Assembly: GCA_944320495.1 (NCBI GenBank)
Contig: CALUHR010000009.1
Coordinates: 64,001 to 128,000 of the forward strand
Origin: Candidatus Methanomethylophilaceae archaeon
GTDB taxonomy: Archaea; Thermoplasmatota; Thermoplasmata; Methanomassiliicoccales; Methanomethylophilaceae
Length of the DNA: 64,000 nucleotides
Direction: 5' to 3'
Shown here: positions 37,276-51,194 of the stretch, in pieces
How positions within the stretch are numbered: position 1 is the stretch's first letter
Layout: each line of letters begins with the position of its first letter
Program-made: the position numbers and the translations under genes
The notes under the pieces: model-generated
Database searches by the model: none
Told to the model about the DNA's origin: nothing
The model's input: the letters and a program-made list of their open reading frames with translations, nothing else

Positions 37276-40146
37276 ATGGCCTACAGGGGATCCGACGTGA
37301 CGTTGCGTCGGACATTGACGCGGCTTCTCTCGGAGATGGAACCCAGGAGCGTTATGGGTGACAAGGTGGACCTCCCTGTCATGACGCTGGAGGAACTCGT
37401 CGATTACGACGGCGAGTTACGCAGGGTGGGGACGGAGATGCTGAGGAATGCTCCCCAGGATATCGGCCTGCTTCGTCTCCTCGTCAGGATCGCCATCATC
37501 TCACCTCCTAGCGATTATGATGAGGCCATCCATCAGGCGGCGTCGAACATGGCGGACAGCGATTCCCTGGCGTGGACCTACGCCTGTGGTATCGGGACCG
37601 AATCCGACGATGTCAAAGCCATCCGTCTCTTACGGTCGAATAAGGACCTGTCCGCACTGTATTCAGGAATCTGGAACAACTGCGACCTGATCGAGAAGCA
37701 CTCATTCATCCGCAACCGCATCGATATGCCGGACGGAAAGGTCCGGGTAGAGGACCTATTCTCGGCCTACATCAATTCGGACGTCGTATTGGACAGACTG
37801 GTTTACCGGATGGGGATCATGTCATGTCTGACGTCTCACGGGGATCTCGATACGGCTTTCAGAGCGGTATCACTTGTCGAGAGGCTCCACATCGAAGACA
37901 CGGACCTGTTGATGAACATCATTGAATCCATACATCCGGTGACATACGGTCTGCGGGAAGCGACTTACCTGGACGATGAGGAGGTGTTCAAACTCTGCAC
38001 ATTGGAGGATTTCGAAAGGGAACATTCGGCAGAATGGGCTGTATCCACCCTCTCGTCGTGCGGATATCTGAACAAACCTTCGCCGTTCATCGCCATAGGA
38101 CTTCTCAACTCGGACCTGACGGATGCCCAGATGGAACGCATAACGTCGGCTCTGTACTTCTGTCCGGAGAAGGTGGTGATCCAGTGGCTCGACGACGGAG
38201 CGGACCCTTTGGGGCCCACATTGACCAAAGAACGCAGAAGTCTGGATCCGGAGCCAATGGATTCCCGCTCGGCAAATAGCTCGGATGAGGAGTATGTCGA
38301 ATGCATATTGGACTCCAGCAATTTAGAACTGTATTATCAAAACATTCCAGACATATTGGTGAATGCGGAGGGACGGTTCTTTGACGAATATCCCGGCGCC
38401 GATAGATCCGATGATGTGGCAGATGAGGATGGAGGGGATTCATCACTCCGCGAGGATGAGGAGTATGTCGAATGCATATTGGACTCCAGCAATTCAGAAC
38501 TGTACTGTCAAAACATTCCAGACGAACTTGTGGACGAGGAGAGGTTCCTTGACGAATATCCCGACGTCGATGGATCCGATGATGTGGCAGATGAGGATGG
38601 AGGGGATTCATCACTCCGCGAGGAGGAACTCAGGGAGGCGTATTCCGGGGATCCGATAGCTCAGTTCAATGTCGGGGTGACATCCTTGGAGGATTCGAGG
38701 TTCGATGATGCCAAGGCATGGTTCGTGATCTCATCGATACAGGATGTGTCCGACGCACAGTTCAATCTTGCTCTGATGTATCTGGAGGGGAAAGGTATCG
38801 ATGCCGATCCGAGACGCGGTGTAGGATGGATGATGGATTCGGCACTGGGTGGGGACGTGGGCTCGTGCTCCTATCTTGGCTATCTCTACCGCGAGGATGA
38901 CAGTGTGGAGGACGTTGATGGATTGACGAAATCCGATCGTTTTTCCGCAATATGGAATTGGATCGCCGCATCATACGGTGATTCGAACGCCAGTTTCAAT
39001 CTCGCGGTCATGTACGAGTTCGGACTTGGGCTGGAGCAGTCCATGGACAAAGCTGTCACCTGGTACAGGAAGGCGATATCCGATGATGTCCCCGAGGCCA
39101 TGTACAATCTGGGCAACATCTACTATCTGGGGAAAGGCGTCACACAATCCGATGAACGGGCCAGAGCTCTATACGCGAGAGCATCAAGGTTTGGCGATGT
39201 TGATGCCATGTGCAATCTGGCATCAATGGTATGGATGTCTCGTACAGGTCCTAAAGACGAGGAGAAGGCGATTTCCCTATTCGAGAAGGCCGGAGAAATG
39301 GGCTCTGGTCTGGCCTTTCACAACCTGGGCTCGATCTACGACAGCGAAAGCGAACTGCATCATTCCAAAGAGCGTGCTGTCCAGTTCTATTTGAAGGCCA
39401 TCGAACTGGGCGAGATCAATTCGATGATCAATCTGGGGATAATGTACGAACATGGTGACGGGGTGGAGGTGGACCTGTACAAAGCAGCCGATCTGTACAG
39501 AAGGGTTGCTGATGAAGGGGGTCCGGAATGCAACGACTGCAGGAGGCATCTCGCGTTCATGTATATGAGGGGGGATGGGGTGAACCAATCCACCGAGGAC
39601 TGTATACGCCTGTTCGAAGAGGCCGCGGCCTTGGGTGACGAGAGGGCGATGTACAATCTCGGTGCGATATACGACAACGGGGACATCGTCGAGGAATCCA
39701 TCGATACTGCGATCGAGTGGTACGAGAAGGCAATGGAGAACGGGAGCCCAGATGCGGCCAGTGTATTGGGCGACATATATCTCGAAGGCGATGGTGTGGA
39801 TGAATCAGAGGACGCCGCGAACAGATTCTACGACAAAGCCAGAGAGCTGGAGATCGCAGAGACGTTCTACAAACTGGGGAACAGGTCCAGGTCAGAACGC
39901 GATATGGATTCCGCCGAACGGTACTATCGCGTATCAGCATCCAAGGGAAACAAGAGCGCGATCCGCGCACTGGAGGACCTGGGGATCACTTGGAATCAGG
40001 ATCATGTTCCGTCGGAAGCAGATATGCCTCCGGATGCGATCGATGATGCCGACCAGGCCGTTGAGATCGTTCAGAGGCCGGTGATCGCGTCATCCATGAT
40101 GGTTGTAAGACCCACCCTCAGACTGCATGGGAGGATATCCGCATGA
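37276..40146 (+). CDS. Large SEL1-repeat protein with internal acidic duplication
   Basis: About 10-11 AQFNLALMYLEGKG / AMYNLGNIYYLGKG-type repeats in the C-terminal half. Confidence 0.88.
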   Translation: MAYRGSDVTLRRTLTRLLSEMEPRSVMGDKVDLPVMTLEELVDYDGELRRVGTEMLRNAPQDIGLLRLLVRIAIISPPSDYDEAIHQAASNMADSDSLAWTYACGIGTESDDVKAIRLLRSNKDLSALYSGIWNNCDLIEKHSFIRNRIDMPDGKVRVEDLFSAYINSDVVLDRLVYRMGIMSCLTSHGDLDTAFRAVSLVERLHIEDTDLLMNIIESIHPVTYGLREATYLDDEEVFKLCTLEDFEREHSAEWAVSTLSSCGYLNKPSPFIAIGLLNSDLTDAQMERITSALYFCPEKVVIQWLDDGADPLGPTLTKERRSLDPEPMDSRSANSSDEEYVECILDSSNLELYYQNIPDILVNAEGRFFDEYPGADRSDDVADEDGGDSSLREDEEYVECILDSSNSELYCQNIPDELVDEERFLDEYPDVDGSDDVADEDGGDSSLREEELREAYSGDPIAQFNVGVTSLEDSRFDDAKAWFVISSIQDVSDAQFNLALMYLEGKGIDADPRRGVGWMMDSALGGDVGSCSYLGYLYREDDSVEDVDGLTKSDRFSAIWNWIAASYGDSNASFNLAVMYEFGLGLEQSMDKAVTWYRKAISDDVPEAMYNLGNIYYLGKGVTQSDERARALYARASRFGDVDAMCNLASMVWMSRTGPKDEEKAISLFEKAGEMGSGLAFHNLGSIYDSESELHHSKERAVQFYLKAIELGEINSMINLGIMYEHGDGVEVDLYKAADLYRRVADEGGPECNDCRRHLAFMYMRGDGVNQSTEDCIRLFEEAAALGDERAMYNLGAIYDNGDIVEESIDTAIEWYEKAMENGSPDAASVLGDIYLEGDGVDESEDAANRFYDKARELEIAETFYKLGNRSRSERDMDSAERYYRVSASKGNKSAIRALEDLGITWNQDHVPSEADMPPDAIDDADQAVEIVQRPVIASSMMVVRPTLRLHGRISA
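38284..38622 (+). repeat. Intragenic tandem duplication (171 nt + 168 nt)
   Basis: Units DEEYVECILDSSNLELYYQNIPD...DEDGGDSSLRE and DEEYVECILDSSNSELYCQNIPD...DEDGGDSSLRE. Confidence 0.92.
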
Positions 40147-40223
40147 GATCCTCCAAGGAGAGATGTTGTGGACGCTCAATCGGCATCATCTATTCGATAC
40201 TATACAGCGATATAGGGGGTGGG

Positions 40224-41321
40224 ATGGACTCGAGAGGAAAAAGGGAGGTGCTGGAGGGACTTTATGGCCCGATGTCCAGATCCATCAGGAAAATGCGGGG
40301 GCTCAGACCGGGCAAAGGGACAGTGGAGCTCCTCGATTTGCCGATGCTGACATTCCTCCAGTGGATCAAGGATTACGGCAACTGCAGTGCGGAATGCAGG
40401 ATCATCCCAAGCAACGACAAGTACGGACTTGCGGCGACGTTCGAAGACATCCAGGTCGATGTTGGGAACTTCAGGAGAAGGGGACAGGCATATGATGACG
40501 ATCAACCTGAGGATGACATCCTCCTTCCAGTATTCGTCGGTGACGAACTCCAACGCTTCTTGAAAGATGACGACGGCCTCCGGTGCCCGGTCCTGCATGG
40601 CCATCCGATGTGCATCGTGGACTTCAGTCAGCTGTTGCCTTACCGTTTCACTGAGGATGCGAAGTCCGGCATATCGCCTCACACCCTTGAACCAGGGACC
40701 ATTTGGATGAGGGCAGAGAGCATCCTGGAAAAGACCCTGAGTCTCATATGGCTGACATCAATGATCGATTTCGATGGAGACCGGGAGTTGCTAAGACTGG
40801 GATGCCCCGTATTGTCATCAAATCCGCCCCCTCCGAAGCAATACGATGTGGAATCCAAGGTGGTGATAATATTCGGGTCCATAGGTAGCTTGGATTCCGA
40901 GTACTACAACCTGAAAGGTAATGACAAGTTCGGTCATCTGGATGCTAACGGACTGAACAACACATACGTCTTCGAACATGATGGCATGCACATCCGTCAT
41001 TACAGGGTCCTGAGCGACGATCCCCGGAATTTGAATAGTCATGATCTCAACGGGAGCATCGGAGAGAGGGTCCTACCAAATATGCTGAAAGATGCCAGAG
41101 ACACCGATGAGATCGGTGTGAAGAGAACAGTCGTCGTCATAGGCCGCACGGACGTCGAGGTTGCGCTGTGGATCATGAAGCAATGCGATTCCCTGGGGCT
41201 GACATACGATACGGCACGTAATCTGGACGAGGGAGGCAAAATGAGCCTGTTCTTCCTCAAGTGCTCTCAACTCTTCGAGAGGGAGAGATCGCTCTCCGGA
41301 GTCGATGGTCCGACCCTTCGA
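40224..41321 (+). CDS. Hypothetical protein (island)
   Basis: AT-richer codon usage; alternative start 40143 (ATGA overlap); ends CTT CGA TGA. Confidence 0.7.
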
Positions 41322-42526
41322 TGACCTTCGATCAGACCATCGAAGAAATCTGTTATCGCAAGATCGAGCTCCTCGGATCTCGGGTGCACACTGGATCCCG
41401 TGATGTCCCTCAGGATGTAGGAGGGGCCCGCTCTGATGGTCACATAGATCTCGTACGTCCTCGCGAACACCTCAGAAGGGGAGAGGTAGTACCACAGGTT
41501 CGGGTCGCTGACGAGTCTAGGGAGCACGTCCTTCGAATACAGCGTCTTCACAGGGATGAATGAAGACGATGTCGATGGCCTGTTCATGAAGAAGTCCATT
41601 GCATGTCCGTACTCGTGGACCAGCACGTCCGGCCTGGATGTGTTGACCAGGACGTCCCTCAGCCTCCCGTTGAACTGCCCGATGAAATCTGTTCTGGAGA
41701 ACCTTCTGACCCTCAGATGGAGGTCCGCCCAGGCAGGGGGCCTCGGCAGCACATCCATCGCCTCGAGCCCGATGATGCCCTCGGCCAAAGACCTGATCTC
41801 CGCGGAAGAGACCCTGGGGTCCACATCCAGACCCGTGAAGAATCCGTTCAGTTCCGTCTCATTCAGAAGATTCGTTCCGCGTTCATCTGAGCGGATGTCG
41901 CAGTAGGGGCGCATGGAGGCGGGAACATCCCTCAGGAGTCCTCTCGCACGGCAGTATGCCCTCATCGCGGTGAACAGGAATGCGAACCTGTTCTTCCAGA
42001 GGCCGAACGGTCTGACGGTGCCATCTAAGGTGAAGACCCTCCCGGTCATGTCGTCTGCGGCATCCGAGAAGTATCCGATCTCGCGGGCGGTCCTGGAATC
42101 CGACGTGCGGGACATCTCGAGGATGTCGCGCTGCAGTGCCAGCAGTCCCATTTCAGATGCTATGAGCCCAGGATCAGCCAGTATGCGGTCCCCTTCGGTA
42201 GTGTGCACCGCCCTCCCATGGAGATCGGGGCCGATGGGCACATCCGGGACCAGGAAGATGATGCCGCCATCGGACATCATGAAAAGCAACCTGAGTACGA
42301 TCCCGGGGCGGACGTCATCCCGCTCGATGATGCGGAGGACAGCTGACCGTTCGAGAGACAGGCATTCCGGCTCGGTAGACAGTTCGAGGCCGAACGCATC
42401 CCGCATTCTGGAAGACAGTGCCAGCAGATCCGAGGCGTACGGCGGGAACCCTGCAGCGGCCCATGTCTCGGCCAACGCCTTGAGTCTGGCGGTCGCGTCT
42501 TCGAAGTCATCCATGTCGCATCCCAT
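41318..42526 (-). CDS. Zincin-like (HEYGH) protein with LPD1-like C-terminus
   Basis: VLVHEYGHAMDF; YYLSPSEVFARTYEIYV; in-frame CGA 41320-41318; standard-code stop 41267. Confidence 0.72.
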
Positions 42527-42615: not shown

Positions 42616-43095
42616 ATGAAAGACAGCAAGGACAGGGTCAGGAAGATGCTCCAGAAGCAGAATGCCAGAATCAAGGAGGAGACGGAGGACACCATCAAGT
42701 TCATCCCCGATCTCAACGAGGGGTTCTGTCCTCCCGTCATGGTCCGCATCTGGGACGACCATGTGATGTTCATCACCGAGCTCAAACCAGATGTTCCAGA
42801 GAAGGCGAGGCAGAAGGTCTCCGGACTGGTGCATGACTTCAACAAGCGTAACTCAGAGGGGGTGCTGGACTACGACATGGAGGATGGCCAGGTATGGGTC
42901 AGGACCTGGGAGCGTGTGGGAAACGGCCGCAGATTCGGGCCGAAGGACCTCGAGTACCATATCCGCCTGGCCAGGGAAATCTCGTCCTCGGTGACGCCGA
43001 AGATATTCGTGGCATGCTCGGGCATCGATGCCGACCCGGATGAGAACGGGGGATGCACCCCTGGAGGGGACGATCCGTCCGTCATGTACGGACGA
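42616..43095 (+). CDS. YbjN/T3S-chaperone-like protein
   Basis: VRIWDDHVMFITEL..LVHDFNKRNSEGVLDYDMEDGQVWVR..DLEYHI; ends DDPSVMYG then CGA. Fused to VirD4 under the standard code. Confidence 0.65.
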
Positions 43096-43122: not shown

Positions 43123-44562
43123 ATGAAAGGCAATCCTGGAGGCGGGATCCCCCTCCGTTTCTGCAACGGGAGGCCAGTTTTCGACGGTTCCCCGTACCAT
43201 GGGCTGATCATAGGGTCGACAGGAGCCGGGAAGACGCACTGTCTCATCATCCCGGCATGCCTCTCCATGGCCTGGAACGGGGAGTCGTTCATGGTCGAGG
43301 ACCCGAAGGGCGAGATCGAGGGGATTCTCGGGGGCGAGCTCAGAAGGCTCGGTTACGAGATCCACACCCTGGATGCCCGTGACCCGTACTCAAGCGACAG
43401 GGTAGGTTTCCTTTCCGAGATCTACGACAAGTACCGGTCGGAGGACCGCTTGGAGAGGGACATGGTGCCCAGGTTACTGGAGGACATGGCGCTGGTCCTC
43501 ATGGACAACGGGAACCCGGACGACAAATACTGGGTGGACATGGCGGCCCATCTCTTCGTGGGATGCGCACAGCTCCTCCTCAGGAGATGCTCTCGCGAGG
43601 AGTTCACCCTTGGCAACATCTATTCTCTGAAGACCGTGTTCGAAAACAACGAGCGTCTCACGAAGATGCTCCTGGAGTCCTTGCCCTCCGACGCCCCGGA
43701 GCGGAGGAACATCTCGGGCACAGTCATCAATGCCGACAACACAAGGAGGTGCATCCTATCATTCTTCGACAGGGGGCTGCTGCCTTACATATCGAACCCG
43801 GGTGTGTGCTCCATGTTCTCCAACGGGGATTTCTCGGCCTCCGATGCCGGATTCAGATCGATGGCGGTGTTCCTCAGGATCCCGGATGAGAGCAGGACGT
43901 TCGACGGGATCGTATCGCTGTATGTGAGCATGGTCTACACGGAGATGATCAGGAGGGCGCATGCGGAAGGCGGAGGAAAGCTGCCCGTCAGGATGAACTT
44001 CATCCTCGACGAGCTGGCCAATCTGCCGATGATCCCCGATCTGGACAAGAGGATCTGCATCTCGAGGAGCCGCAACATACGCTTCATGCTGGTCCTCCAG
44101 AGCAAGAGGCAGCTGGAGGCCAGGTACGGTCCCGCGGCCATGGACATCGTGGTGAACAATTGCGGGAACATAGTCTGCATGGCGAACAGGGACCTCTCAC
44201 TCCTGAAGGAGATCTGCGAGATGGCGGGGGTCGACGGTGTGACCCCGAGGTCCATCTCCCGCATGCCTCCCGGAAGGGCTCTGATCATCCATGGAGGGGA
44301 TGAGCCGTACGTGACGGATCTCCCGACATGGGAGGCCTACGGCATCGTCCCCGGTGAAGGGGTTGCCAGGCCCAGGAGGGATCCGGACCCGGAGGGATGC
44401 TTCGATGCAGAGGACTACATCTTCGGTCTCGTCGGAGTCTTCGAGGAGATGGAGGAGGAAGAGGATGATGACGAGCCGGAGGTGTCGTTCGCTTGGATGA
44501 GGGACAACCTGCGGAATATCATTCACGATGCCCTTGTCAACGATGACGAGGAGGATGACTGA
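43123..44562 (+). CDS. VirD4/TraG-like type IV coupling ATPase
   Basis: HGLIIGSTGAGKT, EDPKGE, FILDELANL, SRSRNIRFMLVLQS..QL..RYG; no N-terminal TM helices. Confidence 0.85.
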   Translation: MKGNPGGGIPLRFCNGRPVFDGSPYHGLIIGSTGAGKTHCLIIPACLSMAWNGESFMVEDPKGEIEGILGGELRRLGYEIHTLDARDPYSSDRVGFLSEIYDKYRSEDRLERDMVPRLLEDMALVLMDNGNPDDKYWVDMAAHLFVGCAQLLLRRCSREEFTLGNIYSLKTVFENNERLTKMLLESLPSDAPERRNISGTVINADNTRRCILSFFDRGLLPYISNPGVCSMFSNGDFSASDAGFRSMAVFLRIPDESRTFDGIVSLYVSMVYTEMIRRAHAEGGGKLPVRMNFILDELANLPMIPDLDKRICISRSRNIRFMLVLQSKRQLEARYGPAAMDIVVNNCGNIVCMANRDLSLLKEICEMAGVDGVTPRSISRMPPGRALIIHGGDEPYVTDLPTWEAYGIVPGEGVARPRRDPDPEGCFDAEDYIFGLVGVFEEMEEEEDDDEPEVSFAWMRDNLRNIIHDALVNDDEEDD

Positions 44563-46851: not shown

Positions 46852-47586
46852 ATGTTCTCCGTTCCCGAAGTGGTCGAACCATTCTACTGGGGGCGCCTCC
46901 GCTACACGTCCGAGAGGGAGGCGTACTCTCGCATAAGATCCGCCATGATCGGAGGGTCCGCCTCCGTCGGGGTGGAGGACCTCCGTCTCACTACCGGGAT
47001 GATGCTCGATGTGAGCGACGCCATCTATCTGGACGATCCCATGCTCTTCCACTGTCGCATAGACTCCTGGGATCTTATCGACGGGATGGCCACGGAGGTC
47101 TTCATCACCCAGCACTACACCGAGGCCGCGCGCGCATCGATGCGCAGGGCCATCGGGGATGCGCTCTCCGACGCCTACTACGGATGCCTGCGCGGGGCCC
47201 CCGACATCTTCACAGCAGAGAGGGCGGTCCTGAGATGGCTCAGGGGCAACGTCGTCTACGACATCAAGGAGGCCGATGACAGCATCCCTGAGCACGAGTA
47301 TCGCTCCGTCGTAGGGGCGCTGGTGCACCGCAGGGGCGTGTGCTCATCGATCTCGATGGCCGCCTCGCTCATGCTGAACGCCTGCGGTTTCAGGACGATC
47401 TGCGTAGTCGGGACGTCCCAGGGGGAGGGACACATGTGGGATGCCATCAGAACGCCGTCCGGATGGCTGCATTCTGATTTCACCTTCGCCTTAGGCGCAG
47501 ATGACGTCACATATCTGGACATGGACGACAGGTCCTGCGCCGTCGACCACGAGTTCGACATAGAGCTCCGGGATTACTGGGCGCGA
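46852..47586 (+). CDS. Transglutaminase-like protein with intact Cys-His-Asp triad
   Basis: RGVCSSIS, GHMWDAI, WLHSDFT; CGA 47584-47586; standard-code stop 47874. Confidence 0.82.
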
Positions 47587-47623
47587 TCGGCGGGCTGGAC
47601 GTCCGGTGATGGGCCGGGGGACC

Positions 47624-49450
47624 TCGGTCCCCCTCCTCGAACTGCGCGTCATGGAGGGTCCGGTAGTATCCGCCGAGCTCCAGCAGCTCCTCGTGCGTGC
47701 CGGATTCGACGATCTCCCCTCCCACCATCACCAGTATCCTGTCGGCGTTGCGGACGGTCGACAGTCTGTGAGCGATCACGAACGACGTCCTTCCGCCGGT
47801 CATCAGGTCCATCGCCTGCTGGATGCGCTTCTCGGTGCGGGTGTCCACGGAGCTCGTCGCCTCGTCCAGTATGACCATGGGGGCGTCCTTGACTATGGCA
47901 CGGGCGATGGCGATCTGCTGCCTCTGCCCCACGGACAGGCCTCCCCCGGACCCTATCACGGTCTGATACCCGTCGGGGAGCGAGCGGATGTACTCATCGA
48001 TCCCGACGGTCCTGCAAGCCTCCTCCACCCTCTCGGGCGTGGCCCCGGGGCTGGTGAACGCCACGTTGTCGTAGACTGTCCCGTCGAACACCCACGAGTC
48101 CTGGAGGACCATGGAGAACTGCTCCCTCACCTGGTCCCTCGACAGCGATGACGTGGGCACACCGTCTATGAGGATCTGCCCGGACCACGGGTCGTGGAAC
48201 CTCATCAGCAGGTTGACCAGGGTGGTCTTCCCCGCTCCCGTGGGACCGACGATGGCGATGGTCGATCCCGGCTCCACGGTCAGGTCCAGTCCGTGGATGA
48301 CCTCCACGTCCGGACGGTATCCGAAATGGACATCCCTGAATTCGACCCTGCCCTCGGCCCTGGAGAATCCCGGGAGCCTCGGGTCGTCCTCCATCTCCGG
48401 GAGGGCGAGGAACTCGAACACGCGTTCCGATGCGGACGCCACGGACTGCATCCTGGCGATGACGTCCGCCAGCTCCGCGATCGGCTGGTTGAACTTCTTT
48501 ATGTAGACGATGAAGGCCGCTATCACACCGTAGGTGGCCGACCCCTCGATGATGAGGACGGATCCTGCGACGCATACCATAACGTAGCCCAGGTTGCTGA
48601 TGAAGTGCATCAGCTGGGGCATCATGGAGGTGATGACCCTCGCCCTGAACGACGAGCGGAACAGCTCCTCGTTGACCCCGTCGAACTCCGCGCGGCTGTT
48701 GTCCCAGTTGTCGTACGTCCTGACTATGTCATGGCCGTAGTAGACCTCCTCCACTATGGCGTTGATCCTCCCGAGGTCCCTCTGCTGGGCCACGAAGAAC
48801 CTCTGGGTGCGGTGCGTGACCACCCAGAGCGCAGCCATGCCGAACAGCGTGGGGATCACCGCCACCAGCGCGAGTTGCCAGCTGGTGAGGAGCATCATCA
48901 CGATGGCACCGATCATGGTGAAGACGGCGTTGATCGTGTTGGAGAAGCTCTCGGCCGAGCCGCTGCGGACCGTGTCCGTGTCATTGGTCATGCGGCTCAT
49001 CAGGTCGCCGACCTGGTGCGACTCCAGATAGGAGAACGGCAGGCGGTAGAACTTGGACGACAGGTCCTTGCGCATCCGGTCTCCGACCCTCTCGGAGGCG
49101 GTGCCGATGATCCTCGACGCCGACGAGTCGAACAGGAAGCTCAGGCCGTAGATGGCCACCAGGATGATGCCCAGCGTCCCGACCCATCCCGTGTCCACGC
49201 GGCCGTGGTCCGGGTCCAGAATGGATGCGGAGATCTCGTCGGTCATCATCTCCAGGAACTGTGGGCCAACCAGCGCCAGGAGCGTCCCGGCCAGCGTGCA
49301 CGCCATGCCTAGCAGGACCGCGCGACGCTCCCTGCCCATGTACGCGAACAGGTTCGCCATCGCCTGTCCCAGGTCCTTGGGCTTGTCGGAACCGCGGGTC
49401 CATCTCGGGCCCTTGGGCTGCGTCCTTGCTCCGGGCTCGGTGCTCGACAT
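47624..49450 (-). CDS. ABC exporter, TMD+NBD subunit 2
   Basis: GPTGAGKT, LSVGQRQQ, ILDEATSS, IAHRLS; CGA 47626-47624 after QFEEGD; standard-code stop 47507. Confidence 0.92.
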
Positions 49451-51194
49451 CGAAGTCCTCCAGCTGGGAGTGTGCGATCTCGCGGTACAGCTCGCATGAG
49501 GCCATGAGCTCCGCGTGCCTTCCCCTGCCGACGACCCGCCCATGCTCCAGCACGACGATCTCGTCGGCGTCCAGTATCGTCCCGACCCTCTGGGCCACAA
49601 TTATCTTGGTGGCGTCTGCGATCTCGCGGGACAGGGTCTCGCGGAGGTCCCTGTCGGTCTTCGAGTCGAGCGCCGAGAACGTGTCGTCGAACAGGTAGAT
49701 CGGCGGGTCCTTGCAGACCGCCCTCGCGATGGAGAGCCTCTGCTTCTGCCCTCCCGACAGGTTCCAGCCGTGCTGGCTGACGTCAGAGCGTATGCCCTCG
49801 GGGAGACGGTCGGCCAGGTCACCGAGCTTGGCTATGCGCAGGGCGCGCTCCGCCTGCTCCTCGGTGCGCTCCGCGCCGCCGTAGCGTACGTTGTCCAGCA
49901 GGGAGCCTGAGAATACGACCGCGGTCTGGGGCACGTAGCCGATCATGGAGCTCAGCTCGTCCACGCGGTAGTCCCGCACATCGCGTCCTCCTACGAACAC
50001 GTGTCCGGAGGTGGCGTCGTAGAGCCTCGCCATCAACGAGACGACGGTGGACTTCCCGCTGGCCGTCGGACCGATGATGGCCAGCGTTCCACCTCTGCGT
50101 ACAGTGAACGATACGTCGTGGAGGACCTCGGCGTCGGTCCCCGGATAGGTGAAGCTGACGTGCTCGAACCTCACCTCGCCAGGCTCGGTGGCGTCGGACG
50201 CCCCGAGGGCTCCGTCCCTCACGGCTGATTCGTGGGAGATGACGTCCTCGATCCTCCTGGAGGACACCATGACGTTGGGCAGCTGCCGGAGGATCCCGGT
50301 GGTCATCATCACTGCGGAGAGCACCTGGGTGGCGTAGGACGTGAACACTATCATGTCCGAGAACAGCACCATCTGCTCCTCGGTGCTCCCGTAGGCCTGG
50401 TCGATGACGGCCGCCCCGACCCAGTAGATCGCCATGGTCAGGAAGTTCATCATCGCAGCCGAGAGGGGGTGCATATAGGACATCACCCTGGTGACCGCGA
50501 CGGCGTTGTCCCTCAGGTGGTCGGAAGATTCCTCGAAGTCGCGGGTCTGATGCGCCTCGCCGTTGTAGGCGCGGATGGTGCGCATGCCCTCCAGCTCCTC
50601 GCGGGTCTCGGCGTTGACCTCGTCCACGAACCATTGCATCCTGCGGATGTAGGGTATCCCGCGGCTCAGGATGACCGCCATGCACACAAGGAGCACGACC
50701 ATGGCGACGATGGTCACGGATGTCCACTGGAACGAGCTGCCCGCTATCTTCCATATGGCCCAGACAGCGATTATCGGCGCCTTGACGACCGATTGGATGG
50801 CGCGACCGACGAACTGCTGGAGATGGTAGACGTCGTTGGTCGAACGGGTCACGAGGGATGCTACTGAGAACGAGTCCAGGTCTTCGCGGGACCACGATTC
50901 TATCCTTGAGAACTGCATCTTGCGGAGCGTCCTGCAGAGTGCGGACGCGACGCGCGATGCGAGGGCGGCGGTGGCGACGGCCAGCACGAAGCTTATTAGC
51001 GCGCATGCGACCATGTCCACGCCGCATCCGGCGATCACGTCGGTGGCATCCCCTGCCTGGAGATGGTACGTGATCTCCGACATGTATTCGGGGATGCGGA
51101 GGTCCAGATACACCTGCCCCGTTATGAGGAGGATGCAGCAGGCCACCATTCCCCAGTCTCTCTTACGCAGATACCTCAAAATCGCTCTGATCAC
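49437..51194 (-). CDS. ABC exporter, TMD+NBD subunit 1 (degenerate Walker B)
   Basis: GPTASGKS, LSGGQKQR, LFDDTFSALD, VAQRV; CGA 49439-49437 after SQLEDFDVEH; standard-code stop 48981. Confidence 0.92.

Follow-up and report, generated by a model that had tools for sequence, protein, structure and literature searches.

Two convergent genes of a gut-methanogen accessory island probably end within one TCGA palindrome, each at an in-frame CGA

In prokaryotes with the standard code, convergent genes can share their stops within the tetramers TTAA and CTAG, where each strand reads a stop codon from the same four bases. Changes of the code that turn a sense codon into a stop are known from organelles, e.g., AGA and AGG in vertebrate mitochondria (NCBI table 2), TCA in Scenedesmus mitochondria (table 22) and TTA in thraustochytrid mitochondria (table 23), and bacterial prfB, the gene for RF2, is autoregulated through an in-frame UGA and a +1 frameshift. 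The codon considered here, CGA, has been discussed for two hydrothermal-vent archaeal assemblies of ca. 50% GC, in which it is missing from recognisable domains and regarded by the author as a possible stop, CGG is reassigned to tryptophan and a tRNA(UCG) is lacking; evidence from stop positions is absent from that preprint (bioRxiv 10.64898/2026.04.02.715157). Here we describe a site in a gut methanogen at which one TCGA carries an in-frame CGA at the apparent end of a gene on either strand. In the literature we found CGA nowhere described as a stop for this lineage; if it does act as one, it would be the first case outside organelles of a sense codon turned into a stop.

The site lies in a window of 64,000 nucleotides, the whole stretch of DNA that was analysed (contig C9, positions 64001-128000), taken from a 1.77 Mb assembly with 62% GC (hereafter G000). 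Its markers are those of a methanogenic archaeon, i.e., mcrA, an archaeal tRNA set with G34 anticodons, aRF1, Pelota and no tmRNA. Read directly, positions 41318-41321 of the window are TCGA, with CGA in frame on the plus strand at 41319-41321 and on the minus strand at 41320-41318, and in this the coordinates and frames of an earlier, sequence-only reading of the same DNA are borne out. Under the standard code the plus ORF extends over 40143..41324, with this CGA as codon 393 and last sense codon and a standard TGA adjoining it at 41322-41324 (a tandem CGA-TGA). The minus ORF extends over 41267..42526; of its 419 codons CGA is number 403, with RVGPSTPESDLSLSKS and a TGA (41269-41267) behind it, and the two ORFs overlap by 58 bases. 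With CGA as a stop, the plus gene occupies 40143..41321 (392 codons and CGA) and the minus gene 41318..42526 (402 codons if it ends at CGA), and the overlap shrinks to exactly the four bases of TCGA. Each of the two genes has a single in-frame CGA, at its end, and both use all five other arginine codons. The earlier reading had placed the start of the plus gene at 40224, but 40143 is the probable start, given that the first 27 residues are conserved in homologs; the ATG at this position overlaps the TGA of an upstream Sel1-repeat gene. As a TGA stands directly behind its CGA, the plus gene is certain to end here whichever code applies, with a margin of one residue, and CGA is needed by the minus gene alone. 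The earlier claim of a TCGA that serves two convergent genes as terminator thus stands insofar as conserved coding of both genes ends here, and is weakened by the TGA behind one of them. The accompanying argument, that a single T-to-C miscall cannot give two standard stops, holds for the minus strand only, as the plus strand has its TGA anyway. We consider it probable that both genes end in the TCGA at 41318-41321.

Among 1282 standard-code ORFs of G000 (crude calls made from third-position GC), CGA accounts for 2.5 per 1000 codons and is thereby as scarce as other codons ending in A. By ORF decile, however, its counts run 317, 137, 46, 38, 23, 29, 38, 71, 98 and 313, whereas 12 control codons have no 3' peak and only the 5' excess that comes from over-long ORFs. 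Where the second half of an ORF contains a CGA, third-position GC drops behind the first of these from 0.88 to 0.72, compared with values that stay at 0.84-0.88 after 11 control codons. The 23-46 CGAs in the central deciles sit mostly in spurious (antisense) frames or at transitions between coding and non-coding sequence; the exceptions, i.e., CGAs inside genes, are codon 88 of aRF1 and two or three junction sites, and within the window CGA is confined to the extremes of ORFs. The ends of genes were aligned with those in ca. 650 kb of three congeners (G013, G004, and G008), and the 220 positions that fell on a relative's stop were TGA (103), TAG (20), CGA (16), and TAA (3), with no other codon exceeding six. 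CGA lies at most two codons from a relative's stop in 31 distinct genes, and in 25 aligned CGA cases the relatives have TGA (12), CGA (1), or other codons (12). Pelota is a clear example: in G008, G015, and G007 it ends ...LRYK[MV] directly at TGA or TAA, in G013 and G004 one residue later at TGA, and in G000 and its sister assembly G018 there is a CGA at that end, within one codon (...LRYRL CGA). The standard-code open frame of Pelota in G000 amounts to 858 aa against about 350 in relatives; this ORF (C1:20931-23502, plus strand) runs in frame past the CGA into the next gene, which starts MKTKSEV. CGA is thus almost absent from conserved internal positions and present where homologs stop, and from these sequence comparisons it seems to be read mainly as a stop in G000 and, to a lesser degree, in the whole genus.

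Of 36 CGA ends in G000, 32 are also CGA in the sister assembly, which differs from G000 at 3.2% of coding sites and at 7.4% of third positions, and two others are TGA there; one end that is TGA in G000 is CGA in G018. The shared CGAs and the swaps between CGA and TGA exclude an error specific to one assembly and indicate that the two codons are interchangeable. A sequencing artefact had also been considered and was rejected, G018 having CGA at the same gene ends. Calling genes with four stops, crude as before, yielded 1629 genes, 410 of which (25%) end in CGA. T follows the CGA in 20 of 31 validated stops and in 154 of 293 called ones, against a background of 23% of CGA trinucleotides, and a standard stop stands directly behind 18 of 293 CGA ends as compared with 21 of 808 TGA ends (odds ratio 2.45, p = 0.009). 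Taken together, the preference for T and the tandem stops suggest a leaky, context-dependent stop.

TCGA as such carries little weight. It occurs 547 times in the window and 8.1 times per kb genome-wide, and it is uninformative by itself because it arises from NTC-GAN codon pairs. An argument from the rarity of the tetramer, which is among the commonest, was tried and dropped. The excess over chance lies in the frame, in-frame CGA being scarce within genes and concentrated at their ends. A genome-wide count of convergent pairs meeting at TCGA, proposed as a check in the earlier reading, gave 3 of 315, all three consisting of genuine genes. The other two are Pfam-supported, namely an EamA and a GNAT gene at C13:101501-04 and a DUF7121 and a GNAT gene at C3:174797-800. 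The first of these has the same heptamer as the site described here, CTTCGATGA, and the two strands in G018 have CAA CGA and CGT TGA, respectively, i.e., the palindrome is not conserved. Stops that abut exactly were found in 22 of the 315 pairs, mostly as CGA/TCG and CGA/TCA (YGA/TCR; e.g., C13:91302-91307 and C9:40109-40114), and each gap of one to four bases in only two to four pairs. CGATCG, present in 12 other convergent pairs, is self-complementary and lets a U, the favoured base, follow CGA on either strand, which is impossible for both strands of a single TCGA at once. There is also one mixed pair sharing its stops in TTAG. With three pairs in 315, and one of these absent from G018, the shared TCGA is neither enriched nor conserved in a way that would speak for selection, and it looks like an incidental by-product of the code. 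The parallel with TTAA and CTAG that had been drawn is nevertheless formally right, as adding CGA to the stops makes TCGA, and no other additional tetramer, a stop on both strands.

The minus gene carries a HEYGH motif of the zinc-protease type. It had been described as LPD1-like, but its score against LPD1 (PF18796) is 12.6 bits (E = 0.14, residues 346-363 only), below the Pfam gathering cut-off of 27, and it can be called only weakly LPD1-like. Searches of Pfam and PHROGs gave it no function, and no Pfam family above threshold. Although neither the minus nor the plus gene reaches a Pfam threshold, both are real, as seen in their conserved homologs and coding-type codon usage. In relatives, the minus-gene family ends 4-10 residues past an FDxL motif, and this end is CGA in G013, G147, G041, and G014 and a standard stop in G143, G034, G168, and G167; the CGA is followed by a stop in G147 and G041 and by unrelated tails in G014 and G013. 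Beyond the CGA in our window lie 16 codons and TGA (41267..41317, minus strand), a stretch that also codes for the final 17 residues of the plus gene. The corresponding RRVGPS...S tail is kept in P0003 (96% identical) and P0004 (71%), but not in P0005, P0006, or the homologs of the genus, and it differs in length and sequence among distant homologs. Conservation of this extension had been named beforehand as the observation that would speak against a stop, and formally this observation was made, with two close homologs keeping the tail; the more distant ones do not. Tail conservation cannot decide here, however, because the DNA of the tail is constrained by the plus gene as well, whose conserved C-terminus it encodes. 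Nor can the translated frame be told from third-position GC in the 51-base overlap (0.65 in the plus and 0.63 in the minus frame, counted by eye), since the codon bias of the island is weak. The stretch 41267..41317 is most likely untranslated on the minus strand, or translated on read-through only.

The context of the minus-gene CGA is CAT CGA AGG, i.e., the next base is A, which follows CGA in 1 of 31 validated stops and in 28 of 293 called ones. T is likewise missing behind all four in-gene CGAs that we inspected, which are probably read through; the next base is C in aRF1, G in two cases and A at window position 43093. Termination of the minus gene at its CGA is likely, and given the rarity of A among validated stops and the absence of T behind the in-gene CGAs, it may be leaky.

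For the plus gene no match was found in Pfam or PHROGs. Its five homologs come from public metagenomes (P0007-P0011, 46-97% identical), and in their alignment conservation ends at Leu-Arg, which is invariant at the last conserved position. P0007, P0009, and the gene described here stop right after the terminal Arg, whereas P0008, P0010, and P0011 continue for another 35-41 residues with mutually unrelated tails, those of P0008 and P0011 being antisense translations of the minus gene. P0009 and P0010 are close to each other (both ca. 59% identical to the query and similar in the alignment), but only P0009 stops after its Arg, and a standard stop at that place thus looks dispensable. Back-translation by hand of the overlapping pair P0004/P0009 narrowed the plus-strand Arg codon to CGA or CGG, followed by TGA. 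A scan of metagenome contigs with the alignment of the plus-gene family found nothing, and no homolog of the plus gene turned up in 173 genomes of the family or in the neighbourhood of the minus-gene homologs. What the site adds is that homologs of both genes from independent metagenomes have their end at this same codon, with the proviso that P0003-P0011 are known as proteins and that a CGA at the terminal Arg is proven only for the homologs of the minus gene within the genus.

Both genes belong to an island at 35.5-47 kb of the window that has a lower GC content than its surroundings and encodes a Sel1-repeat protein, a VirD4-like ATPase, and an Hsp70-like protein besides the two genes themselves. 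In the seven genes of the island, none of the 87 CGN codons is CGA, where 11-13 would be expected from the share of A-ending codons in the other four-fold boxes (P about 1e-5 to 1e-6). Internal CGA is thus avoided, which agrees with the earlier suggestion that island genes follow the same code; the site extends the rule to accessory genes with neighbours of conjugation and chaperone type. The only CGA of the island in the middle of an ORF, at 43093..43095 on the plus strand and followed by A, separates a 159-codon YbjN-like ORF from a VirD4-like ATPase that restarts in frame at an ATG at 43123. P0013 (645 aa, 57% identical) keeps an Arg at this CGA, within MY-x-R-[IV]-QG. Homologs of the 159-residue YbjN-like ORF that stand alone did not turn up in a word-based search; an exhaustive search retrieved distant homologs of this part that do stand alone, with 147 and 200 aa, along with one 645-residue "fusion". 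The CGA at 43093 could be a stop between two genes or the site of a programmed read-through fusion. A second convergent pair in the region of the island lies at 47584-47626: with CGA as a stop, the ORFs 46852..47586 (plus) and 47624..49543 (minus, an ABC exporter) both end in CGA and leave a gap of 37 bases; under the standard code they overlap by several hundred bases.

Loss or disabling of the cognate tRNA is not what G000 shows. It has, at C13:413317-413390, an apparently intact gene for tRNA-Arg(UCG), and CGA is therefore probably still decodable. This tRNA was found in about half of the genus genomes searched, and no copy turned up in the complete genomes G008 and G015. Its anticodon loop has U32/C38 in G000 and G018 as opposed to C32/A38 in 16 congeners, and a mismatch between positions 31 and 39 is common to all copies. 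CGG is in normal use (4.8 per 1000 codons) and has its own tRNA-Arg(CCG). Among the other tRNA genes, tRNA-Trp(CCA) (C2:55639-55809, minus strand) carries a 96-base intron in the anticodon loop.

The gene for aRF1 (C2:85933-87195, minus strand) has a CGA at codon 88, counted from the first start. In 14 of 15 genus members the aRF1 gene has one CGA and no more, always at this conserved Arg (GCT CGA CTC), and outside the genus the site is filled by other Arg codons. By eye, the alignment also shows genus-specific changes in the N-domain, as well as a Gly to Ser replacement unique to G000 and G018 in the stretch GRGTELIS, which we take to correspond to the GTS loop of human eRF1. In NIKS and YxCxxxF, no change specific to G000 was seen that would explain the reading of C at the first codon position. 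We postulate, from these sequence features, that aRF1 itself recognises CGA and that tRNA-Arg(UCG) competes with it, which would make CGA a leaky stop. By analogy, the single conserved CGA in the aRF1 gene may act as a feedback device. A further in-frame CGA, followed by G, is codon 186 of the ORF C13:193618-194700 (minus strand), where third-position GC is high on either side; it is a probable read-through or fusion site, where a domain follows whose first residues, AVFIDRDDT, by eye resemble the start of a HAD-type phosphatase.

For the site itself, we envisage that two convergent genes of a low-GC accessory island meet such that the terminating CGA of each lies in the same TCGA. The plus gene would end at CGA-U, the favoured context, and be backed up at once by the TGA; the minus gene would end at CGA-A, a poor context, probably giving a protein of 402 residues, with an occasional read-through extension of 16 residues up to the TGA at 41269-41267. 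The palindrome would then be a geometric by-product, TCGA being to CGA what TTAA is to TAA. Viewed together with the genome-wide data, we lean, with moderate confidence, towards a code in which gut methanogens throughout this genus have CGA as a context-dependent fourth stop that works best as CGA-U; aRF1 would read it, with the one conserved CGA in the frame of its own gene serving as a brake. Mobile islands resident in these hosts would have been purged of CGA and would use it as a terminator, the code acting as a barrier to foreign DNA, and the TCGA here and the CGATCG of the 12 other pairs would be two-way stops that exist only in this code.

The same site may be read differently. Were the standard code in force, both CGAs would be rare arginine codons, the plus gene would end at the TGA at 41322-41324 and the minus gene at that at 41269-41267, with a real tail of 16 residues, and the TCGA would be a coincidence. 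This fits the TGA directly behind the plus-strand CGA, the presence of tRNA-Arg(UCG), the tail kept in P0003 and P0004, the frequency of TCGA (8 per kb), and the general rarity of A-ending codons at this third-position GC. It leaves unexplained, however, why CGA alone among the rare codons piles up at ORF ends, aligns with the stops of relatives and exchanges with TGA in G018, why the minus-gene family ends at CGA in four other species, why the plus-gene homologs diverge completely right after the Arg, and why none of the 87 CGN codons of the island is CGA; we give it only a slim chance. A stop so leaky that CGA-A is mostly read through is a better contender, even if in our view an unlikely one. 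The minus protein would then mainly have 418 residues, the YbjN/VirD4 ORF would be a true fusion, and only the plus gene would stop in the TCGA. The single A among 31 validated stops points in this direction, as do the four in-gene CGAs with no T behind them, the motif that P0013 keeps around the CGA at 43093, and the enrichment of tandem back-up stops behind CGA. Against it stand the 28 called CGA ends (of 293) that do have A next, the coincidence of the relatives' family ends with the minus-gene CGA, the tails after the Arg that vary in length and sequence among more distant homologs, and the distant YbjN-like homologs that stand alone.

Explanations that turn each CGA into a TGA, either by C-to-U editing of the RNA (CGA to UGA) or by systematic base-calling errors for TGA, seem to us very improbable. 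They draw on the single base that separates the two codons and on the relatives, which mostly have TGA where G000 has CGA (12 of 25 aligned cases, with one CGA and 12 others). Miscalls, however, cannot know reading frames; the independently assembled G018 has the same CGAs amid many synonymous differences, P0003 and P0007 from other datasets read the same, and two changes would be needed for standard stops on both strands here. Editing, in turn, would destroy the conserved CGA within the aRF1 gene, and we know of no described mRNA editing in archaea. Between these accounts, we retain as the most probable the one in which CGA is read mainly as a stop and both genes end in the TCGA. If it is true, standard annotation gives about a quarter of the proteins false tails, fusions, or antisense overlaps, the 58-base overlap at this site being an example, and the pair described here, with CGA-U on the plus and CGA-A on the minus strand, is a natural test of context-dependent termination.

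Set beside the described systems, the site most resembles the shared stops of TTAA and CTAG, in that convergent genes likewise overlap by four bases and the stop of each strand lies in a self-complementary tetramer. It differs in that the codon is CGA, a stop only under a changed code, that one partner has a TGA behind it and that the contexts of the two strands are unequal (CGA-U and CGA-A); moreover, G000 prefers abutting to overlapping stops (22 pairs against 3). With the organellar reassignments it has in common that a sense codon has gone from the interior of genes and is found at ends where relatives have ordinary stops, but here this concerns a free-living (gut) archaeon with a 1.8 Mb genome that has kept the cognate tRNA and has the codon in frame in its release-factor gene. 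The vent archaea are unrelated, and in contrast to them G000 has 62% GC, a normal CGG, and a tRNA(UCG). Finally, like prfB, the gene for aRF1 contains in frame, once and as a feature conserved in the genus, the codon that its product would recognise; unlike prfB, full-length aRF1 would require the CGA to be read through as Arg with no frameshift, and the feedback that we suggest for it is modelled on this likeness.
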